From NCBI GenBank assembly GCA_039195135.1, contig JBCCVP010000004.1, forward strand, positions 21,909 to 85,908: DNA of 64,000 bases, written 5' to 3'. Origin of the DNA: Pseudomonadota bacterium. GTDB lineage: Bacteria > Pseudomonadota > Gammaproteobacteria > Xanthomonadales > SZUA-38. How positions within the stretch are numbered: position 1 is the stretch's first letter; every line of letters begins with the position of its first letter. A model generated the notes under the pieces. The model was given only the letters and a program-made list of their open reading frames with translations. It ran no database searches and was not told the DNA's origin. Below, in pieces: positions 1,177 through 60,503 of this stretch. The position numbers and the translations under genes were made by a program.

Positions 1177-2865
1177 CTAGCTCGCCGCGGGTGCCTCCTG
1201 AGGCGGCGTGCCGGCAGCGCCGCCGCCGGTTGCCTCTTCCACTTCGGAGAGGGCCGCCTGGAGTGCCTCCAGCCGGGTGGGATGAGTGGTGTCGCCGGGG
1301 ATGCAGTGGTCCGCGTTCAGACCCTCCAGCACGTCCTTAACTTCCTTGCTCATGCCCGTGACGTAGAGCGTTTTATGCGCCAGCCGAGCGTCGCAGGCGA
1401 TCGTCTCCACCGCTCGGGCGGCGGATACGTCGAGAAACGGCACCCGGGAGAAGTCGAGCACGATCGCGGCGGTATGATCCCGCACGCGTTCCCGGACCTG
1501 GTGGCCTACGTCGGCGGCAGCGCCGAAGCTTAAGGGGCCCCCAAAATCGAACAGGGTGATTTTGCCCGCGCCGCGGTCCAGAATCGCCTGTTCCTCGTTG
1601 GTGGTGATGGAACCCTCGGGGTTTTTGAAGTCGTCCAGCTGCTGGTCCGCCATGCGCTTCACAAACGCCAGCGCTGCCAGCACGACGCCCACCGCGACGG
1701 CGGTAATCAGGTCGACAAAGACGGTGAGGCCGAGCACCAGCACCATCAGCACCAGATCCCAGCGGGGGCCCTGATGGGCGCGCTTGAGGTAGGACACGTC
1801 AACAATGTCGTACCCCACCTTGATCAGAATGCCGGCCAGCACCGCGTGGGGAATCTGCGAGGCCAGCGGCGACAGGCTGAGCACCACCGCCAGCAGCACC
1901 AGGGCGTGCAGCATGCCCGCCAGCTTGGTGGAACCCCCGGTCCGAATGTTCACCACCGTACGCATGGTGGCGCCGGCGCCGGGAATGGCGCCGAACAGGC
2001 CGGCCACCGTGTTGCCGATACCCTGGCCTACCAGCTCCTTGTCCGAGTCGTGGCGGGTTCGGGTCATGTTGTCCGCCACCAGCGACGTCAGCAGACTGTC
2101 GATGGCGCCCAGGATGGCCAGGATGATGGCCGCTTCCACCACGATCAGAAAGCTGTCCTGACTGAATTCCGGGAGCACAAAGGACGGCAATCCGGTGGGG
2201 ATGTCGCCCAGCACAGGTGAGCCTTTGATGAACAGGCTCAGTACGGTGCCGATGATCAGCGCCGCCATGGCGCCGGGGATGAACTTACCCAGTGATTTGG
2301 GCCAGAAGAAAATCACCACCAGGGTGACGACGCCCACGGTCAGAGCAGCCCAGTTTGGATCAACCACCGCAGACGGAATAGCGGCCAGGGCAGGGATGGT
2401 TCCGCCTCCGTCGGGTTCGTGGCCAAATAGTCGCGAAAGCTGCAGCGCGATGATGATGCAGCCGATGCCGCTCATAAAGCCCGATACCACGGGGTAGGGG
2501 ACCAGTCGAATGTACTGGCCCAGCCGCATCACGCCAAAGGCGATCTGCAGCAGGCCCGCCAGCACCACCGAGGCAAAGATCAGCCCGACGTTGCCGCTCA
2601 GAGAGCCGAACACGCCGGCAAACACCACCACCATGGGACCCGTGGGGCCCGAGACGTTGGCGCCCGTGCCGCCGAACAGGGAGGCGAAAAAGCCAACAAT
2701 GATGGCGCCCCACAGGCCGGCGATGGGGCCGGCCCCGGAGGCCTCGCCGAATGCCAGGGCCAGCGGGAGGGCAACGATACCGGTGGTCAGTCCACCGTAA
2801 ATGTCTCCCCGCAGGTTACTAAAGTCGAAAAAGGGTGTTCGCTCCTGTGCGGCAGCGGTATTCAT
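1177..2865 (-). CDS. SulP-family anion transporter with C-terminal STAS domain
   Basis: 562 aa with multiple glycine-rich TM segments typical of SulP. The C-terminal STAS-like region reads ITLFDFGGPLSFGAAADV...LDFSRVPFLDVSAARAVE. Confidence 0.9.
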   Translation of the reverse strand: MNTAAAQERTPFFDFSNLRGDIYGGLTTGIVALPLALAFGEASGAGPIAGLWGAIIVGFFASLFGGTGANVSGPTGPMVVVFAGVFGSLSGNVGLIFASVVLAGLLQIAFGVMRLGQYIRLVPYPVVSGFMSGIGCIIIALQLSRLFGHEPDGGGTIPALAAIPSAVVDPNWAALTVGVVTLVVIFFWPKSLGKFIPGAMAALIIGTVLSLFIKGSPVLGDIPTGLPSFVLPEFSQDSFLIVVEAAIILAILGAIDSLLTSLVADNMTRTRHDSDKELVGQGIGNTVAGLFGAIPGAGATMRTVVNIRTGGSTKLAGMLHALVLLAVVLSLSPLASQIPHAVLAGILIKVGYDIVDVSYLKRAHQGPRWDLVLMVLVLGLTVFVDLITAVAVGVVLAALAFVKRMADQQLDDFKNPEGSITTNEEQAILDRGAGKITLFDFGGPLSFGAAADVGHQVRERVRDHTAAIVLDFSRVPFLDVSAARAVETIACDARLAHKTLYVTGMSKEVKDVLEGLNADHCIPGDTTHPTRLEALQAALSEVEEATGGGAAGTPPQEAPAAS

Positions 2866-2941
2866 GTTTTCTCTCCTAGGTGGGGCGCTCTTAGGCGCTC
2901 CGAATTGTGATTCGAAGGTTTCACGGATCGGTGGTTGTTAT

Positions 2942-3310
2942 TTAGCTATCCGTTTGCGCAACCGGGGTGGATTCCCACAGTTGTCTCGCATCGTTGATTT
3001 CGTCGGGGGACACGGCATTCATGCGTCCCTCGACAAAGGCCAACCCGTCAATAATCCAGTTGGCGATTTCGGGCTGAACGAGGTGGTAGATGTGGTGCCG
3101 GCCCTCGCGTCGCTCGTCGACCACCCGGTGCACCCGCAGAATGCCCAGATGCTGGGAGGCACGGGTGGGCGCGATGTCCAAGGTCTCGGCCAGCGTATTA
3201 ACGTCCGCTTCGCCACCACGGAGTTCTTCGATCAGGCGAATGCGGTCCGGATGCGCGATGGACTTAAGAAGTTGAGCAAGCTCTTTGGCGACGACGTTGC
3301 GAGCGGGCAC
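2942..3310 (-). CDS. ArsR/SmtB-family transcriptional regulator
   Basis: 122 aa with a GTG start. Shows the winged-HTH signature (LLKSIAHPDRIRLIEELRGGEADVNTLAETLDIAPTRASQHLGILR). Lies immediately upstream of, and co-oriented with, the SulP gene. Confidence 0.85.
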   Translation of the reverse strand: MPARNVVAKELAQLLKSIAHPDRIRLIEELRGGEADVNTLAETLDIAPTRASQHLGILRVHRVVDERREGRHHIYHLVQPEIANWIIDGLAFVEGRMNAVSPDEINDARQLWESTPVAQTDS

Positions 3311-4359: not shown

Positions 4360-5656
4360 GCTACGCGACCGAATCATCATCTCGTTTCTGCTGTTTGGGA
4401 CGCTGCTGAGCGGCCTGTTCGCGGTGACGGCGTTGGGGATGCGCCAGAATCTGGAAAACGCGCTCATCGATGAAACCCTTGTGCGGGATCTGGACGAGTG
4501 GCTGGATCAGATCCTGAGCGGCGACACCGAAGGTGCCGGATTCTCCTCCCGCTACTACGCCTGGCTCGGACGTCGGAACCTGGCCCTGAGCAACCTGCCT
4601 GAAGCCCTGCCGGACGATTCGGAGCTGCGCGAGCGGGTCGTGGAGCTGGTCGGCCTGCCCAACGGCATCCATGAAATTGCGACGGTAAGCCGCCGCTACA
4701 AAATTGCCGTCGACAAACGGCCCGAGCTTTGGGGCTATGTGGTCTACGACACCACGCCGGATCCGCGGGAAAACCTGCTGCTGTTCGGTTTCCTGGCGGG
4801 ACTTGGCGTTGCCTTTTCTCTTCTGATGCTGGTGCTCGCCATCTGGTCGTCGAAGCGGGTCATCCGGCCCGTTTCGGATCTGGCCCGGCGCGTCAGCGCC
4901 ATGGGCAAAGGCACCCATCCGGAAGCGCTGGCGTCCAACTATGCAGACGACGAAGTCGGGCAGCTGGCCCGGGCCCTGGATGAATATGCCGAACGGCTCA
5001 CGGCGCTGGTGGTGCGCGACAAGGAGTTCAACGCCGATGTCAGCCACGAGCTCCGAACGCCGCTGGCGGTCATCAAAAGCGCCACCGAACTGCTGCTGGC
5101 ACAGCCGAATGTCGACGAAAAAACCCGCACCCGCCTGACCCGCATTGAGCGGGCCGCGCGCCAGACCACCGAATTGACCGAGGCGCTGCTGCACCTGGTG
5201 CGGGCGGAACGGGTCGACCGGGTCACCGGCGAGTATTTCCGGGTGGACAAGATTGTTGAAGAGGTTGTCGACTTCAAGCGTCCCCAGATCGGCAACAAAC
5301 CCATCTCCGTGTCGGTCAACGTGGAAGATTCGTTTTTAGTCTGCGCGCCCGAGTCGGTGATCGCCGTCGCGTTGGGTAACCTCATCGGCAACGCCTTTAA
5401 ATATACGCCCCAGGGCAACGTCGATATCACCGTCGGCGCCAACCGCGTGGTCGTGGAAGACACCGGCCCGGGTCTGGCGGAAGACGAGATGCAGAAGGTG
5501 TTCACGCGCCACTACCGGGGCAGCACCGTCAAAGGCAAAGGTTCGGGTCTGGGGCTGGCCATCGTGCAGCGCTTCTGTGAACTCTACGAGTGGACCGTGG
5601 AAGTCGCCAGCCGCGAGGGCGGCGGCCTGCGAGCCACCCTTTCCTTCGGCCGCTGA
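4343..5656 (+). CDS. Sensor histidine kinase (two-component system 1)
   Basis: 437 aa with two TM segments and a HAMP-like linker. H-box is SHELRTPLAVI; N/G boxes are GNAFKYT, DTGPGL and GSGLGLAIV. Overlaps the end of the response regulator gene by 17 bp. Confidence 0.9.
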   Translation: MQFKRRLRDRIIISFLLFGTLLSGLFAVTALGMRQNLENALIDETLVRDLDEWLDQILSGDTEGAGFSSRYYAWLGRRNLALSNLPEALPDDSELRERVVELVGLPNGIHEIATVSRRYKIAVDKRPELWGYVVYDTTPDPRENLLLFGFLAGLGVAFSLLMLVLAIWSSKRVIRPVSDLARRVSAMGKGTHPEALASNYADDEVGQLARALDEYAERLTALVVRDKEFNADVSHELRTPLAVIKSATELLLAQPNVDEKTRTRLTRIERAARQTTELTEALLHLVRAERVDRVTGEYFRVDKIVEEVVDFKRPQIGNKPISVSVNVEDSFLVCAPESVIAVALGNLIGNAFKYTPQGNVDITVGANRVVVEDTGPGLAEDEMQKVFTRHYRGSTVKGKGSGLGLAIVQRFCELYEWTVEVASREGGGLRATLSFGR

Positions 5657-5754: not shown

Positions 5755-6609
5755 GTGGAAGAAAAACTGAGGAGTGCCCGGCAGGCATTCGACGAGGCGC
5801 GCTTTACCGAGGCCGCGCGCCGGTGCCGGGAGCTGATGAACGAGCCGGACATCACGCCGCCGCTGGTGGCCGCCGCGCTGGCCCTGGAGGGGGGGGCGCT
5901 GGTGCAGCTCGGTCAATATCGCCGGGGCCTCAAATCGCTGCACGAATCCGTCAACGTCCACGAAGCGCTGGGGGAGGAGATGTCTACCGGCTTTGCGCAC
6001 AACTACATCGGTGCCGCCAGCGAGGAGCTGAAAGATCTGGCCGGTGCCTACGCGCACTACGAGCGGGCGTTGTATCTCGCTGACCAGGCGGCGGACCGGT
6101 CTCTCCAGGCCCGGGTGCTCGCCAATCTCGGGGACGCGCTGGTGACGGACGGCAAACCGGAGCAGGCCCTGGTGCATCTGAAGCGGGCGGCCGGCTGCGC
6201 GCAAGCGGTTGAAGAATGGTCCCTGCTGGGCTGGGTGGAGGGGGCAACGGCTCGCGCCCTGATGAGCACCGGCGATCTGGAGCAGGCCGGTTTGTATTTT
6301 GAAAACGCCATCACCCACAGCCACGCCGGGTCCGGCGCGCGCGCCGAGGGGGAGATCCTGCTGCACTTTGGCAATTACCTTAAGGCGATGAATCTCAAGG
6401 AGCAGGCGCTGGAGAACTATCGCTCGGCGCTCAGGATATTTGCGCGCGTCAACGCGCGCTGGGGCATCCGCCGAGCCCATCGGGCTCTGTCGGATTTTTA
6501 TGCCGACAACGGCCAGTACCAAAAGGCCCTCGAGCACTACCGCCTGTTCCATGAGGCCCACGCCGACATGCTGGAGGAGCTGACGGACGCCTGGGAGTCC
6601 CAAAGCTGA
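5755..6609 (+). CDS. TPR-repeat protein
   Basis: ORF is open from 5590, but its first ~55 codons are Arg/Pro-rich junk. GTG at 5755 begins a TPR-like sequence (repeated A..Y..AL motifs, e.g. AYAHYERALYLADQ and ALENYRSALRIFARV). Its stop overlaps the folA start (TGATG). Start is uncertain. Confidence 0.6.
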   Translation: MEEKLRSARQAFDEARFTEAARRCRELMNEPDITPPLVAAALALEGGALVQLGQYRRGLKSLHESVNVHEALGEEMSTGFAHNYIGAASEELKDLAGAYAHYERALYLADQAADRSLQARVLANLGDALVTDGKPEQALVHLKRAAGCAQAVEEWSLLGWVEGATARALMSTGDLEQAGLYFENAITHSHAGSGARAEGEILLHFGNYLKAMNLKEQALENYRSALRIFARVNARWGIRRAHRALSDFYADNGQYQKALEHYRLFHEAHADMLEELTDAWESQS

Positions 6610-7400
6610 TGAAAAGACCCACGATCACCCTGATTGCCGCATTAGACCGGCGCCGTGCCATCGGCCGCGACGGCGACCTTCCCTGGCATCTGCCGGAGGA
6701 CCTGAAGCACTTCAAGCGGGAGACGCTGAATAAGACCATGGTGATGGGACGACGCACCTTTGACGAGATCGGCAAGCCGCTGCCGCGCCGCCACAACGTG
6801 GTGATCACCCGGGGCGGCCGGAAATTTCCCAAAGGCATTACGCCGGTTAAGTCCCTCGCCGAAGCGCTGGCCATCGCCGAGTCGCCGGAGGTGATGATCG
6901 CCGGCGGCGGCGAGATCTACCGGCTGGCGCTGCCGCGGGCGGACCGGCTGCTGCTCAGTCATGTCGACACGGTGGTTGCGGACGCCGATACCTTCTTTCC
7001 GCGATTTTCCAAAAAGCGCTGGGCCGGCTGGCTGATGGATCGACAGGGACAGGACCCGCGCCACGAGCACGCCGTCGAGTTCTGGGAATACCTGCCGGCG
7101 ATCAAAGACGACAAGGTGCTCTGCCGCACTCCCGCCGAAGGTCGTCGACCCACGCGCATTCCCAGCTGGAAATTTGACGCGATGACCGATGCCATTCTTG
7201 GCGCCGTCGACGCGGCGCCGGACGGGCGCATCGCGTTTCGTGATCTCGCTGCGGCGGTAGGCAAGCAACTGCCGGCGGAGCAGCGCAGCAAACTCGGCTC
7301 TATCGGCTGGCACGTAACCTGCGTCAAGCTGGAGCTGGAGGTGCGGGGCACCCTTACCCGCGGCAAAGCCGGCGGCCGGCAGGTGCTCTACCGCACCTGA
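6609..7400 (+). CDS. folA: Dihydrofolate reductase with a ~100-aa C-terminal extension
   Basis: The N-terminal ~160 aa are a clear DHFR (ITLIAALDRRRAIGRDGDLPWHLPEDLKHFKRETLNKTMVMGRRTFDEIGKPLPRR...IAGGGEIY). There is no stop after the DHFR domain, and 100 further residues follow. The 3' end overlaps convergent apaH by 13 bp. Confidence 0.85.
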   Translation: MKRPTITLIAALDRRRAIGRDGDLPWHLPEDLKHFKRETLNKTMVMGRRTFDEIGKPLPRRHNVVITRGGRKFPKGITPVKSLAEALAIAESPEVMIAGGGEIYRLALPRADRLLLSHVDTVVADADTFFPRFSKKRWAGWLMDRQGQDPRHEHAVEFWEYLPAIKDDKVLCRTPAEGRRPTRIPSWKFDAMTDAILGAVDAAPDGRIAFRDLAAAVGKQLPAEQRSKLGSIGWHVTCVKLELEVRGTLTRGKAGGRQVLYRT

Positions 7401-17782: not shown

Positions 17783-17908
17783 TACTCATTGAGACCGGCT
17801 GAGGGACAGGCCCTTAGAAGCCGGGGCAACCTGCAGGTTTAACCCACCTGCAACGGTGCCAATTCCTGCGAAGTGACGGAATTGTTCCAGCACTTCGGGA
17901 AATGAGTG
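17783..17908 (+). promoter_or_regulatory. SAM-I (S-box) riboswitch
   Basis: Read directly: P1 ACTCATT (17784-17790) pairs with AATGAGT (17901-17907). Conserved cores are GAGA..GGCTGAGGGAC.GGCCC..GAAGCC.GGGCAACC, then P3 TGCAGGT/ACCTGCA, then ACGGTGCCAATTCC. Located 108 nt upstream of a Cys/Met PLP enzyme gene. Confidence 0.85.
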
Positions 17909-53875: not shown

Positions 53876-55684
53876 ATGTTTCGATCAACCGCTGTGCCGC
53901 TGGCCGCCGCGTTACTGCTGTTTTCCGCCGGGCTGACCGAGCTTCGGGCCCAGATTCAGGACCAGGGGCAGGCCCCCGGTCAACAAGCCCCAACCTCCGC
54001 CCCCGAACGCTTTCGCGAGCTGTACGAAGCAGAGTGGGAGTTTCGCCTGCGGGAGTCTCCGCGCCTTGCGACCGCGGTAGGAGATCGGCGCTTTAATCAC
54101 CTGCTTGCGCGGCAGCGGCCCGAGGATATCGAGCGCCGCACCCGCTATTGGAAAGGGGTGCTCAGCGAGCTTGAGCAGATCGATCGCGATGCGCTGGCGG
54201 CGGACGACCAGACCAATTACGCCATCTTCTATCGCCAGATCAAATCGTTTATCGACAATGTCGAGAACCAGGGTTACCTGATCCCGTTTACCAGCGACTG
54301 GGGGTTTTACTCCGGTCTGGCCCGCCTCCCGGCGGAGGTGCCGCTGGTCACGCTGGAGGACTACAACAATTACCTCGACCGCCTCGCGATGGTCCCGCTG
54401 GTCATCGACGACAACATTGCACTGATGCGCCGGGGCATCGAGGTGGGCATGACCCAGCCCCGGGTCATTCTGGCGGGCCGGGACAAGGCGATCAGCACGC
54501 ACGTGGTGGACGAGGTCAGCGCCAGCGTTTTTTACGCGCCGCTGAAAAAAATGCCCGAGAGCATCGATGAGATCCGCCGCACTCAGCTTGAGGCCCGGGC
54601 CGGCGCGCTGATCGGCGAACAGGTCATACCGGCGTTCGCCCGCCTGCTTGAGTTTTTCAACGGCGAGTACACCGACGGTGCGCGGGAAACGCTGGGCGCC
54701 AGTGAGTTCCCGAACGGCGCGCGCTACTACGCTGATCAGATCAGTTACTACACCACGCTGGATCTGACGGCGGAACAGATCCACGACATTGGGCTTAAGG
54801 AAGTCGCACGCATTCGCAGCGAGATGGAGGCGATCATCACGCAGCTCGAATTTGAAGGTTCGTTTGCCGATTTTCTTCAGTTTCTGCGCACCGATCCCCA
54901 GTTCTACGCTGAGTCACCGCGAGAGCTGATGATGGTGGCCAGCTACTACGCCAAAAAAATGGACGGCGCCCTGCCGAGGTTTTTCAAAACCCTGCCGCGG
55001 CAGCCCTACGGCGTGGAGCCGGTGCCGGCGGACCTGGCGCCGTTCTTTACCGGCGGACGCTACGTCGGCGCCCCCATCAGCTCGACGCGACCAGGCCTGT
55101 ATTGGGTGAATACCTACAACCTGGCTAGCCGCACCCTCTACACCATTCCCGCACTGACGCTGCACGAGGCGGCCCCGGGACACCATCTGCAGGCGGCGCT
55201 GGCGAAGGAGCAGGGGGAGCAGCCGCCGTTTCGGCGCAGCGACTATATTTCGGCCTACGGCGAGGGCTGGGGCCTGTACGCTGAATTTCTGGGGATCGAG
55301 GCGGGCATCTACGAAACGCCGTATGACCACTTCGGCCGGCTGACCTACGAAATGTGGCGCGCCTGTCGGCTGGTGGTGGACACGGGAGTTCACAACCTGG
55401 GGTGGACGCGCCAGCAGGCCCTGGACTACCTCGCGGGCAACACGGCCCTGTCCACACACGAAGTGACCACCGAGATCGATCGCTACATCTCCTGGCCGGG
55501 CCAGGCCCTGGCCTACAAACTGGGAGAACTTCGAATTCGAGCGCTTCGGGACCGCGCCACGGAGGCGCTGGGCGCCGCGTTCGACCTGCGGGAATTTCAC
55601 GACGTGGTGCTGGCCCAGGGTTCGGTGCCGCTTCCAATCCTGGAGTCAGCCGTTGATCAATACATTAAGGAGGCAGCGGAATGA
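53876..55684 (+). CDS. DUF885 family protein (putative metallopeptidase-like)
   Basis: The ATG at 53876 gives signal MFRSTAVPLAAALLLFSAG. The conserved motif HEAAPGHHLQ and overall length (602 aa) fit DUF885. Confidence 0.85.
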   Translation: MFRSTAVPLAAALLLFSAGLTELRAQIQDQGQAPGQQAPTSAPERFRELYEAEWEFRLRESPRLATAVGDRRFNHLLARQRPEDIERRTRYWKGVLSELEQIDRDALAADDQTNYAIFYRQIKSFIDNVENQGYLIPFTSDWGFYSGLARLPAEVPLVTLEDYNNYLDRLAMVPLVIDDNIALMRRGIEVGMTQPRVILAGRDKAISTHVVDEVSASVFYAPLKKMPESIDEIRRTQLEARAGALIGEQVIPAFARLLEFFNGEYTDGARETLGASEFPNGARYYADQISYYTTLDLTAEQIHDIGLKEVARIRSEMEAIITQLEFEGSFADFLQFLRTDPQFYAESPRELMMVASYYAKKMDGALPRFFKTLPRQPYGVEPVPADLAPFFTGGRYVGAPISSTRPGLYWVNTYNLASRTLYTIPALTLHEAAPGHHLQAALAKEQGEQPPFRRSDYISAYGEGWGLYAEFLGIEAGIYETPYDHFGRLTYEMWRACRLVVDTGVHNLGWTRQQALDYLAGNTALSTHEVTTEIDRYISWPGQALAYKLGELRIRALRDRATEALGAAFDLREFHDVVLAQGSVPLPILESAVDQYIKEAAE

Positions 55685-55890
55685 AAACACCATTCATACT
55701 GGGCGCAGCGATGCTCGCCATGGGCGGCTGCACGGTCTATCAGACGGAAGGGCCGGCGGAGCAGAACAAAACCCGCGACCTGACGCCCATCTGCCATGAG
55801 GGCAAAACGCTGCGCGTGGAGGATGACGTGGTGCGGGACTACCTGAACCAGGGCGCCTCGCTTGGCCAATGCGCCAGTCCCGACGGCTGA
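55681..55890 (+). CDS. Small Cys-containing lipoprotein
   Basis: 69 aa with an ATGA overlap to the DUF885 stop. Lipobox-like sequence is AMLAMGGC, and third-codon-position GC is high. The motif ICHEGKTLRVEDDVVRDYLNQGASLGQC recurs in small secreted proteobacterial proteins (from recollection). Confidence 0.55.
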   Translation: MKTPFILGAAMLAMGGCTVYQTEGPAEQNKTRDLTPICHEGKTLRVEDDVVRDYLNQGASLGQCASPDG

Positions 55891-55937: not shown

Positions 55938-58661
55938 GTGGACTTTCCCCAATCCATCACTCAGCTGGACCTGGGTGACGCGGAGTTTGCCCGGCAGCTG
56001 GAAGCGATCACCGCTTTCAGCGATTTTGCCGGCGCGATGCTGCGGGTCCACGGCGACTGGCTGGCGGAGCAATGGTCGAGCGGTGCGCTGAGCGCGCCTA
56101 CCTGGTCGGCCGACCTTGAGTTTGTCGAAGCAGGGTTCGATTCCCTGGATGAGCAGCTGCGGTTTCTGCGGCGGGTTCGGGGCCGGGGCCTGCTGGCGCT
56201 GCTGTGGCGGGATTTTGCCGGCACTGACACCGTCGAGCAGACCCTGCAAGGGCTCTCGGATCTGGCCGATGCTCTGGTCAGCCGGGCCGTTGCAATGGCG
56301 CAGGCCCGGCTGATTGCGAGCCATGGACAGCCGCGGGACGCGGCCGGCCGGCCGCAGGGGCTGGTGGTCCTTGGCCTGGGAAAACTCGGCGGCCAGGAAC
56401 TCAATTTTTCCTCGGATATTGACCTGATCTTCGCCTACCCGGCGGAGGGCCAGACGGAGGGCCGCCGCCCCGTCAGCGTGCAGGATTTTTTTTCCCGGGT
56501 GGTGCGGCAGGTGGTGGATCTGCTGCATCGGGTCACCGCCGACGGGCGGGTCTATCGCGTGGATCTTCGGCTGCGACCCTTCGGCGAGGCCGGCCGCCAG
56601 GTGCTCAATTTTTCGGCCATGGAGCAGTACTACCAGCGCTCCGGCCGGGACTGGGAGCGTTATGCGTTGATCAAAGCGCGGCCGGTGGCGGGAGATCTCG
56701 CGGCGGGTCATGAGCTGCTGGAGCGGCTGCAGCCGTTTGTCTACCGGCGCTACCTGGACTACGGCGCCTACGAGGCGCTGCGCGAGATGAAAGCCCTCAT
56801 CGACGCCAAAGCCAAAGATGCCCAGCGCAACCTCAAACTCGGCCCCGGGGGTATCCGGGAGCTGGAGTTTATGGTCCAGGCCATGCAGTTGGTGCGCGGC
56901 GGGAGCGAACCCGCGCTGCGGTCCCCCCGGTTGCTGCCGACCCTGGCTCAGCTCCCCGGGCTCGGCCTGATGGAGGAGACGACGGCGGCGGGCCTGGCGG
57001 AAGCCTATCGGTTCTTGCGGCGGGTTGAAAATCGCCTGCAGCAGGCGGCTGATCAGCAGACCCACGAACTGCCGGAATCGTGTGAGAGGCTGGCAACGGC
57101 CTGCGGAAAGCCGGATGCATCCGCGTTCGAGGCGGAGCTGTCGCGCCACCGGGCGCTGGTCCAGAAGGAGTTTATTCGCCTGCTGGCCGGGCCGGAAACG
57201 GTACCGGTGGAGAATCCGAGCTGGCGTGCCTGGCAGGAAGTGCGGGCCGGTCAGGAACCGGCGGCGGCGCTCGACGGAGCGGGGCTCAAAAGCAGCGAAG
57301 ATCTGGCCGCCGCCCTGGCCCGCTTTCGCCAGAGCGGTGGTCTGCGCAGCGCGGGTGAGAAGGGCGTGCGGTTGATCGACCAGCTGCTTCCGCGGATTCT
57401 TGATCAGGTGGTGGAGCTGGAGCACCCGGGCCGGGCGCTTGCGGGAACGCTCGACATCCTGGCCGCCGTTGCCAGCCGCACGGCTTACCTCGCCCTGCTG
57501 TCAGAACGGCCGGCGGTGCTCAAGCGGGTGCTCTGGGCGGCCGGCGTGTCCCCCTGGCTCGTTGCGACGCTGAAAGCTCAGCCGGGCCTGATGGATGATC
57601 TGATCGCGCCGGAACCAAGCGAAGACGCCGCTGCGCTCGAGGATCTGCTCAAGCTGGCCACGCAGCGCGCCGGTGAGGACGCGGAGCAGCAGCTCATGGC
57701 GCTGGTGCAGGTGCAGCGGCGGGAGATGCTGGCGCTGGCGGTGGAGTTTCTAACCGGCACCCGGCCAGGCCGGGATACCGCCCGCCGCTTGTCCGCCCTT
57801 GCCCAGGGCATTGTGGTGGAGGTGCTGTCCCTGTGCCGCAGCGAACTGTCGCAAAAGTACGGACTCCCCCGCAGCGGCATGCTGGAGGTGCTTGCCTACG
57901 GCACCTTCGGCGGCCGGGAGATGCGCTTTGACTCCGATCTCGATCTTGTTTTCCTGAGCAGCGACGACGCGGACGATGACAGCACCGACGGGGCAAACGG
58001 CATCTCGACGCAGCGATTTTTCACCCGTCTGACGCAGCGCCTGGTGGGACGCCTTTCGGCGAACTCGGCGCTGGGTCGGCTCTATGAGGTGGATACGCGA
58101 CTGCGTCCCAACGGCAACTCGGGCTTTTTGCTGTCCTCGGCCACGGCATTTGCCCGCTACCAGTCGGAAAGTGCCTGGGTTTGGGAATGGCAGGCCCTGA
58201 CCCGGGCCCGGGCGCTGAAGGTGGATGCGGCGCTGGCGCGCCGTTTTGACCGGGTGCGGCTGGATACGATCCGCCGGCCGCGGGATCGGGCTGCGCTGGC
58301 GCAGGCCATTGCGCAGATGCGTGGACGCATGCAGCGCGAGACTCCCGGGGCCTCCCGGCAGCTAAAGTTTGCGCCGGGAGCGCGGCTGGACGTTGAGTTT
58401 CTGACTCAGTATCTGGTGCTGGCGTTCGGGCAGCAGCATGCGGTGCTGGCGGAAGCTCGGGGTACCGCGGATACGCTGCGCGTTGCCGGTGAGGTGAGCC
58501 TGCTGAAAGCGACGGAGGTGGCGGGCCTGACGCAGGCTTACGATCGAGCGGTGGAGGCAGAGCTGCGGCAATCCCTTGGCTTGTCCGCGGCACCACCGGT
58601 GCCGGAAGACGCCGCGGCGGTGTCCACTATGTGGCAGCACTGGTTTGCGCCCTCGAGATAG
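55938..58661 (+). CDS. glnE: Bifunctional glutamine synthetase adenylyltransferase/adenylyl-removing enzyme
   Basis: 907 aa with a GTG start. Two nucleotidyltransferase modules are present (LGKLGGQELNFSSDIDLIF and YGTFGGREMRFDSDLDLVFL). Confidence 0.95.
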   Translation: MDFPQSITQLDLGDAEFARQLEAITAFSDFAGAMLRVHGDWLAEQWSSGALSAPTWSADLEFVEAGFDSLDEQLRFLRRVRGRGLLALLWRDFAGTDTVEQTLQGLSDLADALVSRAVAMAQARLIASHGQPRDAAGRPQGLVVLGLGKLGGQELNFSSDIDLIFAYPAEGQTEGRRPVSVQDFFSRVVRQVVDLLHRVTADGRVYRVDLRLRPFGEAGRQVLNFSAMEQYYQRSGRDWERYALIKARPVAGDLAAGHELLERLQPFVYRRYLDYGAYEALREMKALIDAKAKDAQRNLKLGPGGIRELEFMVQAMQLVRGGSEPALRSPRLLPTLAQLPGLGLMEETTAAGLAEAYRFLRRVENRLQQAADQQTHELPESCERLATACGKPDASAFEAELSRHRALVQKEFIRLLAGPETVPVENPSWRAWQEVRAGQEPAAALDGAGLKSSEDLAAALARFRQSGGLRSAGEKGVRLIDQLLPRILDQVVELEHPGRALAGTLDILAAVASRTAYLALLSERPAVLKRVLWAAGVSPWLVATLKAQPGLMDDLIAPEPSEDAAALEDLLKLATQRAGEDAEQQLMALVQVQRREMLALAVEFLTGTRPGRDTARRLSALAQGIVVEVLSLCRSELSQKYGLPRSGMLEVLAYGTFGGREMRFDSDLDLVFLSSDDADDDSTDGANGISTQRFFTRLTQRLVGRLSANSALGRLYEVDTRLRPNGNSGFLLSSATAFARYQSESAWVWEWQALTRARALKVDAALARRFDRVRLDTIRRPRDRAALAQAIAQMRGRMQRETPGASRQLKFAPGARLDVEFLTQYLVLAFGQQHAVLAEARGTADTLRVAGEVSLLKATEVAGLTQAYDRAVEAELRQSLGLSAAPPVPEDAAAVSTMWQHWFAPSR

Positions 58662-58713
58662 CGGTGAGACGGCGAGAGTAACGGCGGGACGGTTTGCGGA
58701 GCTTTTGGACGCC

Positions 58714-58742
58714 CCAATAAAGAAGGGGAGCCGAAGCTCCCC
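58714..58742 (-). terminator. Intrinsic terminator oriented for the minus strand
   Basis: On the minus strand, GGGGAGC-ttcg-GCTCCCC is followed by TTCTTTATT. On the plus strand the same hairpin is followed only by TTCAAAG. Confidence 0.6.
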
Positions 58743-59135
58743 TTCAAAGAAGTGTGTCAGTTCTCTGTTCGTCAGCAGTCTTAAGCCTGCGTCGCGCCGA
58801 ACCTTCCTGACTTTCCTGCGCCTTGCCGTTCCGAATAACCGCTTGGCTGCAGTTCCGAGCCGCTTCCCAGCCCGTTTTCTTTTTCGACGTCGCCGGCGCT
58901 TTCGCGTCGCCTGGCGTCTATCTCCGAGGAGTGCGACTCCTCTTCGCACCTGCCGCTGTGGTCTTTGCGAACTTCAGCTTACGCTTCCGCTCCGCGGCAG
59001 CCCGGGTCGTACCACTCGTCCCGGCTCGCTTGGCTGGTTCTCCGCTCCGGATTCCTGGTTGGGCTTCCGGCGCAGGGCCTGTCCGCTGCGTTGAAATCTA
59101 AGTTACGACCGGCCACCCCCGGCGTCAATTCCGCG
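58714..59135 (-). ncRNA. Candidate GGA-rich structured sRNA (CsrB/Rsm-like sponge?), hypothetical
   Basis: No credible ORF in any frame. I count 16 GGA on the minus strand versus 2 on the plus strand between 58743 and 59135. Local hairpins present GGA in their loops. A terminator lies at the 3' end and an AT-rich promoter-like region lies upstream. The 5' end is unknown. Confidence 0.3.
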
Positions 59136-59183
59136 TCAAAACTAAACAAAATATTGGCAAAAATACCAAAATACAAAGCAAAA

Positions 59184-59287
59184 GGGTCAGGTCTGTGCTT
59201 TGTGCATTTTCATGTTCGCTCCCCAATAAATTCAACTGATCAAAGAATTTATCCAGTCGCTTAGGGCCAGGTTTGTGCTTTTTGTTC
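59184..59287. repeat. Two ~22-bp direct repeats 80 bp apart in an AT-rich island
   Basis: GGGTCAGGTCTGTGCTTTGTGC (59184-59205) and GGGCCAGGTTTGTGCTTTTTGT (59264-59285) match at 18 of 22 positions. Confidence 0.5.
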
Positions 59288-59564
59288 AAAAGCGGTACAA
59301 AGGTTTTCAGCCCATTTTGGGGCTTCTCAAGAAAGTCATTAAAAAATATAAAAACCAATGATTTATGGTTTTTTTGGATAAACCGGCGTCTGAGTGGCTC
59401 GAGACATATATGTTCCGCTTTAGCGAAAATTCCTCAGATTTGGCCCAGCTTCCGCAGCTAAGCGGCGGAAATTCTTTTTATTTTTTTCAGCTGGCTCGGC
59501 GTAAAAAAAATCACCTGTCAGAGACACGGCCCGGAACGCTCGAAACCTGCTGGATTTACCAACG

Positions 59565-60503
59565 ATGACGCGGCCAGCGCGGATTTTGCTGGCGGACGGC
59601 TGGTACCACGTGGCCAATCGGGGGGCAGGGCGCCAACGGGTTTTTCGTAATGACCAGCACCGCGGCCTTTTCCTGGAACTCCTGCAGGATCTGCAGAGCG
59701 CCTTTGCCGTTGCGGTTCACGCCTACTGCCTGATGAGCAATCGCTACGACCTGATCGTGCACAACCGGGAGGCCAATCTGTCCGAGGCCATGCGCCATCT
59801 CAATGGGGTATACACGCAGCGCCACAATCGCGATGTGGGACGGGACGGTCCGTTATTTCGCGGCCGCTACCGGGCCGTCCTGTTTGACCCGGAGCTGGCC
59901 CTGCTGGCGGTGTCCCGGCATCTGCACCGCCGGCCACTGGCGACGGGCCGGGTCCCCACGCTGACCCGCTATCGCTGGTCCAGCTATCCCAGCTATGTGA
60001 CCCGGCGCCGGCGCCCGGACTGGCTGCACCGGGAGGCGGTGCTGGCGGCGGCAGCCGGTTCGGCCGCCCGCTATCGGGCCTATGTGGAGCGGGAAGGTGA
60101 ACCCAACGAGGTTGTGCGGCGCTTCTATCGTCAGAGCCGCCCCGGTCCCGTGCTCGGCGGGCCGGAGCTGCTCGCGCGGATTGCCGGGCAGGGCGACGCG
60201 GAGCTGACGGCGCCCGACGCCATTTCCTACCGTAGGGTGCTGCGGCTGGTTGCGGACCATTTTGAAGTGCCCCGGCGGAGCCTGCTCAGCGGAACTCAGG
60301 GCCGTCTCAATGAACCGCGCCTTGCGGCGATCTGGCTGTGCCGGCGCCACTGTCGCCTCACGCTCAAGGAGCTGGCGGCCGTTTTTCGGGTAGCGGGGTT
60401 CGGCACCATATCCGCTGCGCTCAACCGGATGCCTAAGCGCATGGGGCCCCGCTTCTGGAAACAGGTCGCGGCCCTTGAGGCGCAGCTTGCGCCGCAGCCC
60501 TGA
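59565..60503 (+). CDS. IS200-like/REP-associated Y1 transposase-fold protein with degenerate catalytic motifs, fused to a DnaA-domain-IV-like HTH
   Basis: 312 aa. The N-terminus (LADGWYHVANRGAGRQRVF...HAYCLMSNRYDLIV...GPLFRGRYRAV...YRWSSYPSY) follows the Y1 family pattern. The C-terminus (RRSLLSGTQGRLNEPRLAAIWLCRRHCRLTLKELAAVFRVAGFGTISAAL) resembles the DnaA C-terminal domain. Confidence 0.8.
   Translation: MTRPARILLADGWYHVANRGAGRQRVFRNDQHRGLFLELLQDLQSAFAVAVHAYCLMSNRYDLIVHNREANLSEAMRHLNGVYTQRHNRDVGRDGPLFRGRYRAVLFDPELALLAVSRHLHRRPLATGRVPTLTRYRWSSYPSYVTRRRRPDWLHREAVLAAAAGSAARYRAYVEREGEPNEVVRRFYRQSRPGPVLGGPELLARIAGQGDAELTAPDAISYRRVLRLVADHFEVPRRSLLSGTQGRLNEPRLAAIWLCRRHCRLTLKELAAVFRVAGFGTISAALNRMPKRMGPRFWKQVAALEAQLAPQP

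Follow-up and report, generated by a model that had tools for sequence, protein, structure and literature searches.

A conserved structured non-coding RNA gene divergent from a HUH-less transposase-like gene in uncultured gammaproteobacteria

Results

A predicted RNA gene on the minus strand between glnE and a transposase-like gene

The whole 64-kb stretch of gammaproteobacterial DNA analyzed here (the window) contains a gap between glnE and the next gene. Comparative analysis showed positions 59093-58716 (minus strand) of this gap to be the predicted gene of a new family of structured non-coding RNAs (ncRNAs), ~380 nt long, with its own putative promoter and terminator. An earlier note on this DNA had proposed such an independent minus-strand unit, and that proposal held. 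The predicted RNA gene was shown to be genetically linked to a divergent gene for a TIRYT-like transposase homologue without the HUH motif, and to boxes resembling transposon ends. The elements of the RNA gene are:

58716..59093, minus strand: structured ncRNA gene, ~378 nt (nhmmer homologues, consensus fold, no coding signal)
59123..59128, minus strand: -35 hexamer TTGACG (TTGAC invariant in 14/14 copies)
59100..59105, minus strand: -10 hexamer TAACTT, 17 nt past the -35 (conserved in all copies)
58714..58745, minus strand: intrinsic terminator, its 11-bp stem capped by a UUCG loop and followed by a U-tract (terminator scan; helix 99% paired across the family, 4 covarying pairs)

The 3′ end was taken from the U-tract, and the 5′ end (59092-59093) was inferred from the -10 element, to ~3 nt; the positions of TTGACG (59128-59123) and TAACTT (59105-59100) thus place the RNA start near 59092 and give the length of ~378 nt. 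Across the family the -10 follows the pattern TAnnnT, mostly TARYYT, at a spacing of 16-18 nt from the -35 (14/14 copies). It matches TATAAT at only 3/6 positions in most copies, which is why the promoter scan did not flag it. The predicted promoter is of the sigma-70 type, with a strong -35 and a weak -10; the latter would fit an activator-dependent promoter. Two promoters had been suggested from the window alone: TTGACG-N17-TAACTT (59128-59100) recurred in 14/14 homologues, and TTGGTA-N17-TTTAGT was not conserved. A candidate sigma-54 promoter (TGGTAT...TTGCC) was rejected; its spacing was wrong by eye and it was not conserved.

On the minus strand the terminator reads GAAGGGGAGC-TTCG-GCTCCCCTTC (58745-58722) and then TTTATT; as RNA it is GAAGGGGAGC-UUCG-GCUCCCCUUC plus the U-tract. 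This terminator, already placed on the minus strand in the earlier note, was the sole terminator-like site found by a scan of 58400-59800. The promoter TTGAC-N16-18-TAnnnT and a terminator hairpin with U-tract were present on the same strand in 14/14 copies.

The RNA region lacks the marks of a coding sequence, in agreement with the previous statement that the gap has no credible open reading frame (ORF). GC by codon position was flat in the gap (0.59/0.61/0.66, vs 0.75/0.48/0.79 in glnE), substitutions across homologues had no 3-periodicity (variable sites 96/97/91 by codon position), and 122 of the 154 gap runs in the alignment of homologues were 1-2 nt long. Over the gap region we found no conserved reading frame, 3-periodic substitution or in-frame indels. 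Long stop-free stretches do lie opposite the RNA and would favor a protein-coding gene or pseudogene on either strand: the plus-strand ORF 58576-59094 (172 aa) overlies it, as do called genes in two of the relatives' loci (L017 2701-3204, plus strand; L018 4929-5411, minus strand). However, these stretches are open in all three frames at once, stop codons being rare there because that strand has only ~12% A, and the called ORFs in L017 and L018 had no Pfam match. Their products are probably spurious; the U-poor RNA leaves the opposite strand stop-poor, and gene callers therefore placed ORFs over it. A coding explanation is exceedingly improbable.

The RNA family and its conservation

Contigs encoding close relatives of the neighboring protein were retrieved, all of them from metagenome-assembled genomes. 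They brought the family to 14 distinct copies of the RNA in ~11 uncultured Lysobacterales-like genomes (nhmmer; family-profile E 1e-61 to 1e-101). The intergenic region of locus L001 was 70% identical to that of the window over 424 nt (E 1e-42; nhmmer E 4e-69), including an identical stretch of 49 nt. Between the same genomes, the GlnE and MnmC proteins were only 43-50% identical; the RNA is conserved better than its neighbors. Its mean column identity in the 14-sequence alignment was 66%, rising to 82% within the core segment described below. A purine-rich, U-poor composition is a trait of the whole family.

Rfam 15 gave no match to the window RNA at gathering score or at E<=10. Four homologous loci gave chance-level matches only, besides a CrcZ match to the terminator hairpin and a weak CsrC match. 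The region thus matches no described family, as the fallback suggestion of a divergent or new family had anticipated. When JGI metagenome contigs were scanned for exact matches to a pattern of the invariant core, only a contig already in the set came up; searches of viral contigs and PLSDB plasmids found no copy of the RNA, and the family profile and a core covariance model found no further copies in the window and 25 loci (0.43 Mb). The only Rfam match at gathering score in the 64-kb window was a SAM-I riboswitch (RF00162) at 17783-17908 (plus strand; 86.9 bits, E 3e-19).

A covarying fold with a near-invariant core

The consensus fold was obtained with RNAalifold on MAFFT alignments that were not fitted to any structure. 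It comprises ~14 helices and 64 pairs, with standard pairs in 93.5% of cells of the 14-sequence alignment. Covariation among relatives, which the earlier note had named as a check on the RNA, was evident: 31 of the 64 pairs showed compensatory changes, vs 12.3+-2.0 in column shuffles (0/500 reached the observed value) and only 4-11 in slid controls, in which partners were moved by 1-3 columns. G-U pairs were frequent; on the opposite strand they would be A-C mismatches. These pairs, together with the orientation of promoter and terminator, identify the minus strand as the RNA strand. The main structural elements are:

58873..58922, minus strand: near-invariant core, consisting of GAUAG, a hairpin (58918-58886) with a GNRA tetraloop, and the A-rich single strand GAAAAAGAAAA (14-sequence alignment)
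59047..59070, minus strand: 5′ hairpin CCGGA...UCCGG around CAGGAA (helices 2 and 3 covary at all four pairs)
59002..59024, minus strand: hairpin with the conserved loop (R)GUGGUA (helix 4 covaries at 6/6 pairs)
58958..58962, minus strand: ACCAC, candidate pseudoknot partner of GUGGU at 59015-59011 (both near-invariant)
58926..58942, minus strand: hairpin GAGGAGU-CGC-ACUCCUC (helix 8 is 100% paired; 3/5 pairs covary)
58756..58811, minus strand: 3′ domain of nested helices ahead of the terminator (helices 13 and 14 are 96% paired; 5/8 pairs covary)

In the core segment, 48 of 112 columns were invariant in 14 sequences. The upper stem of the core carried compensatory changes in L015 and L020b, the tetraloop was GAAA, GGAA or GCAA among copies, and the A-rich single strand 3′ of the hairpin (also given as GAAAAAGAA) was conserved. 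One compensatory change, G-C to A-U in L029, weakly suggests that GUGGU and ACCAC may form a pseudoknot. The invariant core and the complex fold suggest a specific macromolecular partner, not multi-site titration.

Three short hairpins with GGA in their loops had been pointed out before in the window. CCGGA...TCCGG (59070-59047) is conserved and covaries, but the GG of its GGA is paired: CAGGAA, the only well-conserved GGA, pairs through its GG with an upstream CC (alignment column 33 with 42, and 34 with 41). GGCT...AGCC clashes with a conserved helix, and GCGC...GCGC is kept in some homologues only.

GGA content and the sponge hypotheses

The earlier note had put the unit forward as a candidate CsrB/Rsm-type sponge, i.e., an RNA whose many exposed GGA titrate the CsrA (RsmA) dimer, as in CsrB, RsmY and RsmZ. 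Its count of GGA in 58743-59135 was correct (16 on the minus strand, 2 on the plus strand). The minus strand is 26% A, 34-35% G, 27% C and 12% U (62% purine), and mononucleotide shuffles gave 13.0+-2.9 GGA for that interval (p=0.20); for the RNA itself, with 16 observed, they gave 11.8+-2.7 (p=0.09). Along the 64 kb, ~1.3% of segments of the same size reached 16 GGA on one strand, mostly within genes. The purine-rich, U-poor composition alone thus yields many GGA triplets, and it is this composition, not the triplet, that is the unusual feature.

We applied the same tests to Escherichia coli CsrB as positive control. CsrB had 22 GGA vs 12.3 expected (p=0.0003). AGGA occurred 4 times in the window RNA vs 3.1 expected, and 14 times in CsrB vs 3.8 expected; the corresponding values for ANGGA were 0 vs 3.1, and 7 vs 3.8. 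The mean probability of being unpaired was 0.46 for GGA vs 0.47 for all G and A in the window RNA; in CsrB it was 0.80 vs 0.53. This probability exceeded 0.6 at 6/16 GGA sites of the window RNA and at 18/22 sites of CsrB. The other 13 copies resembled the window RNA in GGA count, A(N)GGA and exposure (per-copy values for GGA 0.28-0.54, vs a background of 0.42-0.49). Outside the terminator, a single alignment column retained GGA in 8 or more of 10 copies; there the GG is base-paired, and its pairs covary.

Some observations are compatible with a sponge. GGA density (16 per 381 nt) is ~70% of that of CsrB, GGA counts slightly exceed expectation in 14/14 copies (1.1-1.45 times the expected number), a CAGGAA and a UCAGGAA-like site show partial conservation, RNA size and terminal terminator fit, and one homologue (L017b) has a weak CsrC match of 15.8 bits, vs a gathering score of 61 bits. 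Xanthomonadales are known to possess RsmA (PMC3937308, PMC7694677). However, base composition accounted for the GGA counts (p 0.04-0.41 per copy), most copies showed no enrichment of AGGA or ANGGA, GGA was not preferentially unpaired, unlike in the CsrB control, and GGA positions were not conserved. What is invariant in the RNA is a hairpin rich in GC instead of a series of GGA loops, and the window had no Rfam CsrB, CsrC or Rsm match at E<=10. No GacA/UvrY box (TGTAAG-N6-CTTACA) was found upstream, where the conserved element is ACAGACCTGACCCC, a non-palindromic direct repeat. Neither csrA nor hfq was found in the 64-kb window and loci L001-L029 (~0.4 Mb), an uninformative negative. A role as multi-site CsrA sponge is not supported, and we consider it quite unlikely. 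More generally, counts of short motifs such as GGA need a base-composition baseline and a positive control.

A sponge of another type would be an Hfq/Crc-type RNA like Pseudomonas CrcZ, in which ~400 nt with A-rich motifs sequester Hfq. The size is similar, the conserved A-rich linker GAAAAAGAA fits AANAANAA and (ARN)3, and a GGGGAGCUUCGGCUCCCC hairpin identical to one in CrcZ accounts for Rfam CrcZ matches of 20.6 and 18.7 bits. These matches, however, span the terminator hairpin only. CrcZ carries six A-rich motifs; the copies here have 0-2, most often one, and their promoter is of the -35/-10 type, not sigma-54. Membership in CrcZ/CrcY, judged by a model match and five or six AANAANAA motifs, was not borne out, the best match being 20.6 bits vs a gathering score of 95. 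Thus an Hfq sponge is very unlikely. GGGGAGCUUCGGCUCCCC is the core of the terminator hairpin (window 58722-58745, minus strand; L017 2728-2780) and corresponds to CrcZ model positions ~342-363; the identity is probably convergence on a stable UUCG hairpin.

The divergent gene encodes a HUH-less TIRYT-type protein

The gene on the other side of the gap is:

59565..60503, plus strand: divergent gene for a Y1 transposase homologue of the TIRYT type, carrying a DnaA domain IV helix-turn-helix at its C terminus (Pfam, family profile)

Its product (312 aa) has a Y1 (IS200-like) transposase domain in the N-terminal half and DnaA domain IV at the C terminus. Pfam gave Bac_DnaA_C at E 1e-5 and Y1_Tnp at 22.4 bits, just below the 23-bit cut-off; the family profile matched solved DnaA domain IV structures (E 2e-13). 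Full-length identity to HUH-intact proteins with Y1_Tnp and Bac_DnaA_C was 36-43%. The protein is of the TIRYT type, subclass 2.1 (PMC3733652, Di Nocera et al. 2013; PMC6006769, Quentin et al. 2018).

The HUH motif N-H-Y-H was replaced by N-R-Y-D in the window protein, and N-R-[YF]-D was present in all 19 homologues (P0001-P0019) at >=55% identity. H-Y-H was kept by 87 of the 120 homologues listed, all 87 at <=46% identity; among these homologues, HUH loss was confined to the RNA-linked clade. The WSSY tyrosine motif was kept in both groups. Because HUH is replaced while WSSY and the DnaA domain IV helix-turn-helix are kept, the clade looks like a domesticated, non-catalytic transposase. Neither a TIRYT clade lacking HUH nor an RNA associated with a Y1 transposase derivative was described in any paper that our literature search found.

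The RNA follows this gene and not glnE. It was present, divergent from the R-Y-D-type gene, in 11/11 clade loci with enough upstream DNA, and its distance to the ATG was 437-498 nt in 10 loci. The pair occurred in three flanking contexts: glnE/mnmC, 4-hydroxyphenylpyruvate dioxygenase (HPPD)/sulfotransferase-like, and SnoaL/pepA. Loci of two HUH-intact homologues that we inspected had no upstream gap and no RNA. The RNA was not found after glnE in 12 other, more distant genomes, where GlnE was <=47% identical to window GlnE. The glnE neighborhood is therefore incidental, since these 12 loci lack the RNA and the RNA occurs without glnE. A link of the RNA to glnE was accordingly rejected, the RNA keeping its other neighbor where glnE is absent. 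Among the genomes compared, none without the RNA and its partner gene has glnE adjoining mnmC.

In three genomes a second, stand-alone RNA paralogue lies between an NAD kinase gene and an AsnC-type regulator gene. The two types of copy (a, beside the gene, and b, stand-alone) cluster by type, so the duplication is old. In L017 the paralogues are at 2725-3101 and 5188-5563, 2.5 kb apart, and L020 and L027 are alike; the pair flanks the AsnC-type regulator and HPPD-like genes.

Two features lie further upstream in the window:

55938-58661: glnE
55681-55890, plus strand: small conserved ORF (69 aa) between a DUF885 gene and glnE

The 69-aa product has a signal peptide and a lipobox-like LAMGGC, and it was 51-59% identical in L001, L014, L015 and L028; no Pfam family was found for it in relatives.

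Transposon-end-like boxes upstream of the RNA promoter

The DNA between the RNA promoter and the divergent gene contains:

59183..59204, no strand assigned: proximal box resembling a terminal inverted repeat (TIR), plus-strand sequence AGGGTCAGGTCTGTGCTTTGTG, a direct repeat with the distal box
59263..59284, no strand assigned: distal TIR-like box AGGGCCAGGTTTGTGCTTTTTG, 86% identical to the proximal box and starting 80 nt away
59147..59157, minus strand: conserved CCAATATTTTG between box and -35, only in glnE-type loci
59136..59564, no strand assigned: AT-rich spacer between RNA promoter and divergent gene (35-49% GC, vs 65% GC for the window)

The two 22-nt boxes are direct repeats upstream of the RNA promoter. 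The proximal box was found upstream of 14/14 copies, including the three stand-alone ones, and the box starts were 80-81 nt apart in 7/7 copies in which both were detected, across three genomic contexts. Each paralogue of a pair has its own TIR-like boxes: both boxes in L017a, L017b and L027b, the proximal one only in the others. Strict box matches in the examined loci occurred almost only upstream of RNA copies, and in the window only here. A dispersed REP-like (repetitive extragenic palindromic) repeat was rejected as a candidate, box and core occurring only at this locus in the window. The conserved CCAATATTTTG resembles the IHF core (CAANNNNTTG) and might serve as such a site.

The plus-strand sequence of the box starts with (G)GGGTCAGGTCTGTG and fits GGGGWSAS, the motif of TIRtron TIRs (PMC3733652, PMC6006769). 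Of the first 12 bases of the perfect 26-nt TIR (GGGTCAAGTCTTGTG...) that flanks a HUH-intact homologue in L022, the box shares 10, and its orientation towards the gene is that of the left TIR. The window yielded no inverted counterpart of the boxes on the downstream side. L022 itself contains a canonical TIRtron, with a perfect 26-nt inverted repeat (5955-5980 and 6948-6973) around the HUH-intact gene; 21 nt separate the left arm from the ATG, and the 3′ end of the gene overlaps with the right arm.

The AT-rich spacer also holds a plus-strand terminator-like hairpin at 59450-59487 (TTCCGC, a 9-nt loop, GCGGAA, then ATTCTTTTTATTTTTTT), only ~80 nt before the ATG of the transposase-like gene. 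The terminator scan missed it because its loop exceeds 8 nt. Its sequence was not conserved past close relatives. It could end a short plus-strand transcript or serve as attenuator.

The likeness of the boxes to transposon ends, beside a transposase homologue, raises the possibility that the region is a relic at DNA level, i.e., a decayed transposon end or REP-like sequence without RNA function that hitch-hikes with its neighbor gene. A relic does not account for compensatory changes by which pairing is maintained, among them G-U pairs, which on the opposite strand would read as A-C mismatches, or for a promoter and terminator conserved in all copies. Both paralogues were kept in three genomes, and conservation of the RNA sequence exceeded that of the flanking proteins. 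We therefore regard this explanation as highly improbable.

Discussion

The observations as a whole are best explained by a new RNA family that is predicted to be controlled through the boxes by the neighbor protein and that, speculatively, acts in trans; we hold this explanation with slightly better than even confidence. Transcription of the RNA would be controlled via the pair of 22-nt direct repeats that lie 80 nt apart ahead of its promoter. These repeats may have descended from the TIRs of TIRYT transposons. The protein of the divergent gene, which has lost the HUH histidines and kept a DnaA-type DNA-binding domain, would bind the boxes, and the same protein would control the stand-alone RNA paralogues in trans. 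RNA and protein would then operate in the manner of OxyS-OxyR, GcvB-GcvA and SgrS-SgrR. The RNA itself might act in trans through its invariant core, most likely by binding a protein.

Several points weigh against this explanation. TIR homology of the boxes rests on 10-13 nt, because no inverted partner of theirs was found downstream. The distance from proximal box to -35 ranges from 6 to ~55 nt (~6, 16 or 55 by context), and such variation is unusual for a simple activator site; the boxes could be inert relics of a transposon end. With few and related family members, the shuffle control overstates the significance of the covariation; safer evidence comes from the slid controls and from how many distinct pair types occur. 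Every RNA copy comes from a metagenome-assembled genome.

The neighbor protein might act on the RNA and not on its gene. On this alternative, the HUH-less Y1 domain, whose ancestors recognize tagged hairpins of DNA, would bind the invariant UAG-tagged RNA hairpin to form a ribonucleoprotein, and the boxes would be DNA docking sites. The core, GAUAG plus an imperfect GC-rich palindrome, recalls the GTAG-tagged REP hairpins bound by RAYTs (REP-associated tyrosine transposases; PMC3479197, PMC3733652), although this resemblance was judged by eye only. Gene and RNA strictly co-occur across rearrangements, the invariance of the core extends to its paired positions and thereby suggests sequence-specific recognition, and the WSSY tyrosine motif is kept though HUH is lost. 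However, the stand-alone b copies have no adjacent gene, and we know of no Y1 transposase that binds RNA. TIRYTs, moreover, associate with double-stranded TIRs and not with hairpins (PMC3733652). We consider RNA binding by the neighbor protein unlikely.

Both ways of coupling can be joined in a broader proposal, which we make only tentatively and with some doubt: a HUH-less Y1 (TIRYT) transposase may have been domesticated together with a 380-nt structured RNA as a conserved two-gene module, in which the protein either uses ancestral transposon ends as operators of the RNA gene or binds the tagged hairpin of the RNA. If true, this would be, to our knowledge, the first example of functional coupling between an ncRNA and a derivative of a Y1 HUH transposase, and the RNA would form a new large bacterial ncRNA class. 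Apart from the mode of coupling, poorly studied uncultured gammaproteobacteria gain a structured RNA family that is well supported and that Rfam 15 does not contain. The analysis also points to an unreported transposase domestication, in which HUH-less Y1 protein, boxes and RNA were co-inherited through several genome rearrangements.

Comparison with known systems

The window RNA shares with CsrB/CsrC/RsmX/Y/Z (RF00018, RF00084, RF00195, RF00166) a stand-alone, trans-encoded gene, a purine-rich composition, a terminal intrinsic terminator, a conserved box upstream and the occurrence of paralogues within one genome; its size is close to that of CsrB (369 nt). Unlike these RNAs, it shows no GGA/AGGA enrichment, exposure or conservation and no covariance-model match; its upstream box is a transposon-end repeat instead of the GacA/UvrY palindrome, and its core is a GC-rich GNRA hairpin. 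RsmU, an RsmA-sequestering RNA of Xanthomonas, is mRNA-derived (PMC7694677) and is unrelated to the window RNA. The likeness to Pseudomonas CrcZ/CrcY (RF01675) consists of a length of ~400 nt, an A-rich motif and the identical GGGGAGCUUCGGCUCCCC hairpin. The window RNA differs in having one A-rich site, no sigma-54 promoter and 20 bits vs 95.

Small RNA (sRNA) genes divergent from their own regulator are known from the pairs OxyS-OxyR, GcvB-GcvA and SgrS-SgrR. The arrangement described here is similar: the RNA is back to back with the gene for a DNA-binding protein, operator-like repeats lie between the two, and the -10 is weak. In contrast to those pairs, a transposase derivative would take the place of a LysR-type or other classical regulator, and the regulatory link is a predicted one. 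The RNA is also far larger and more structured than the base-pairing sRNAs OxyS, GcvB and SgrS.

TIRtrons consist of TIRYT tyrosine transposase genes flanked by TIRs of the GGGGWSAS type (PMC3733652; subclass 2.1, PMC6006769). The neighbor protein is homologous to their transposases over its full length and has the DnaA_C domain, and the boxes match both the TIR motif and the real TIR of L022. Unlike in TIRtrons, HUH is R-Y/F-D and a structured RNA gene is attached. No inverted TIR pair was found around the window gene: instead of hugging the gene as an inverted pair, the boxes stand in tandem as direct repeats, 275-380 nt ahead of it, and no downstream partner was found.

OLE, raiA, ROOL and HEARO are large structured bacterial ncRNAs of obscure function that came from comparative genomics. 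The window RNA resembles them in its length of several hundred nt, many covarying helices, GNRA tetraloop, possible pseudoknot and conserved neighborhood; it differs in having no sequence or covariance-model similarity to them, a different and much narrower host range, and a new protein associate. It is best placed as a stand-alone structured bacterial ncRNA with a dedicated neighbor, for which the RNA is solid, the transposase link unusual and the host range narrow.

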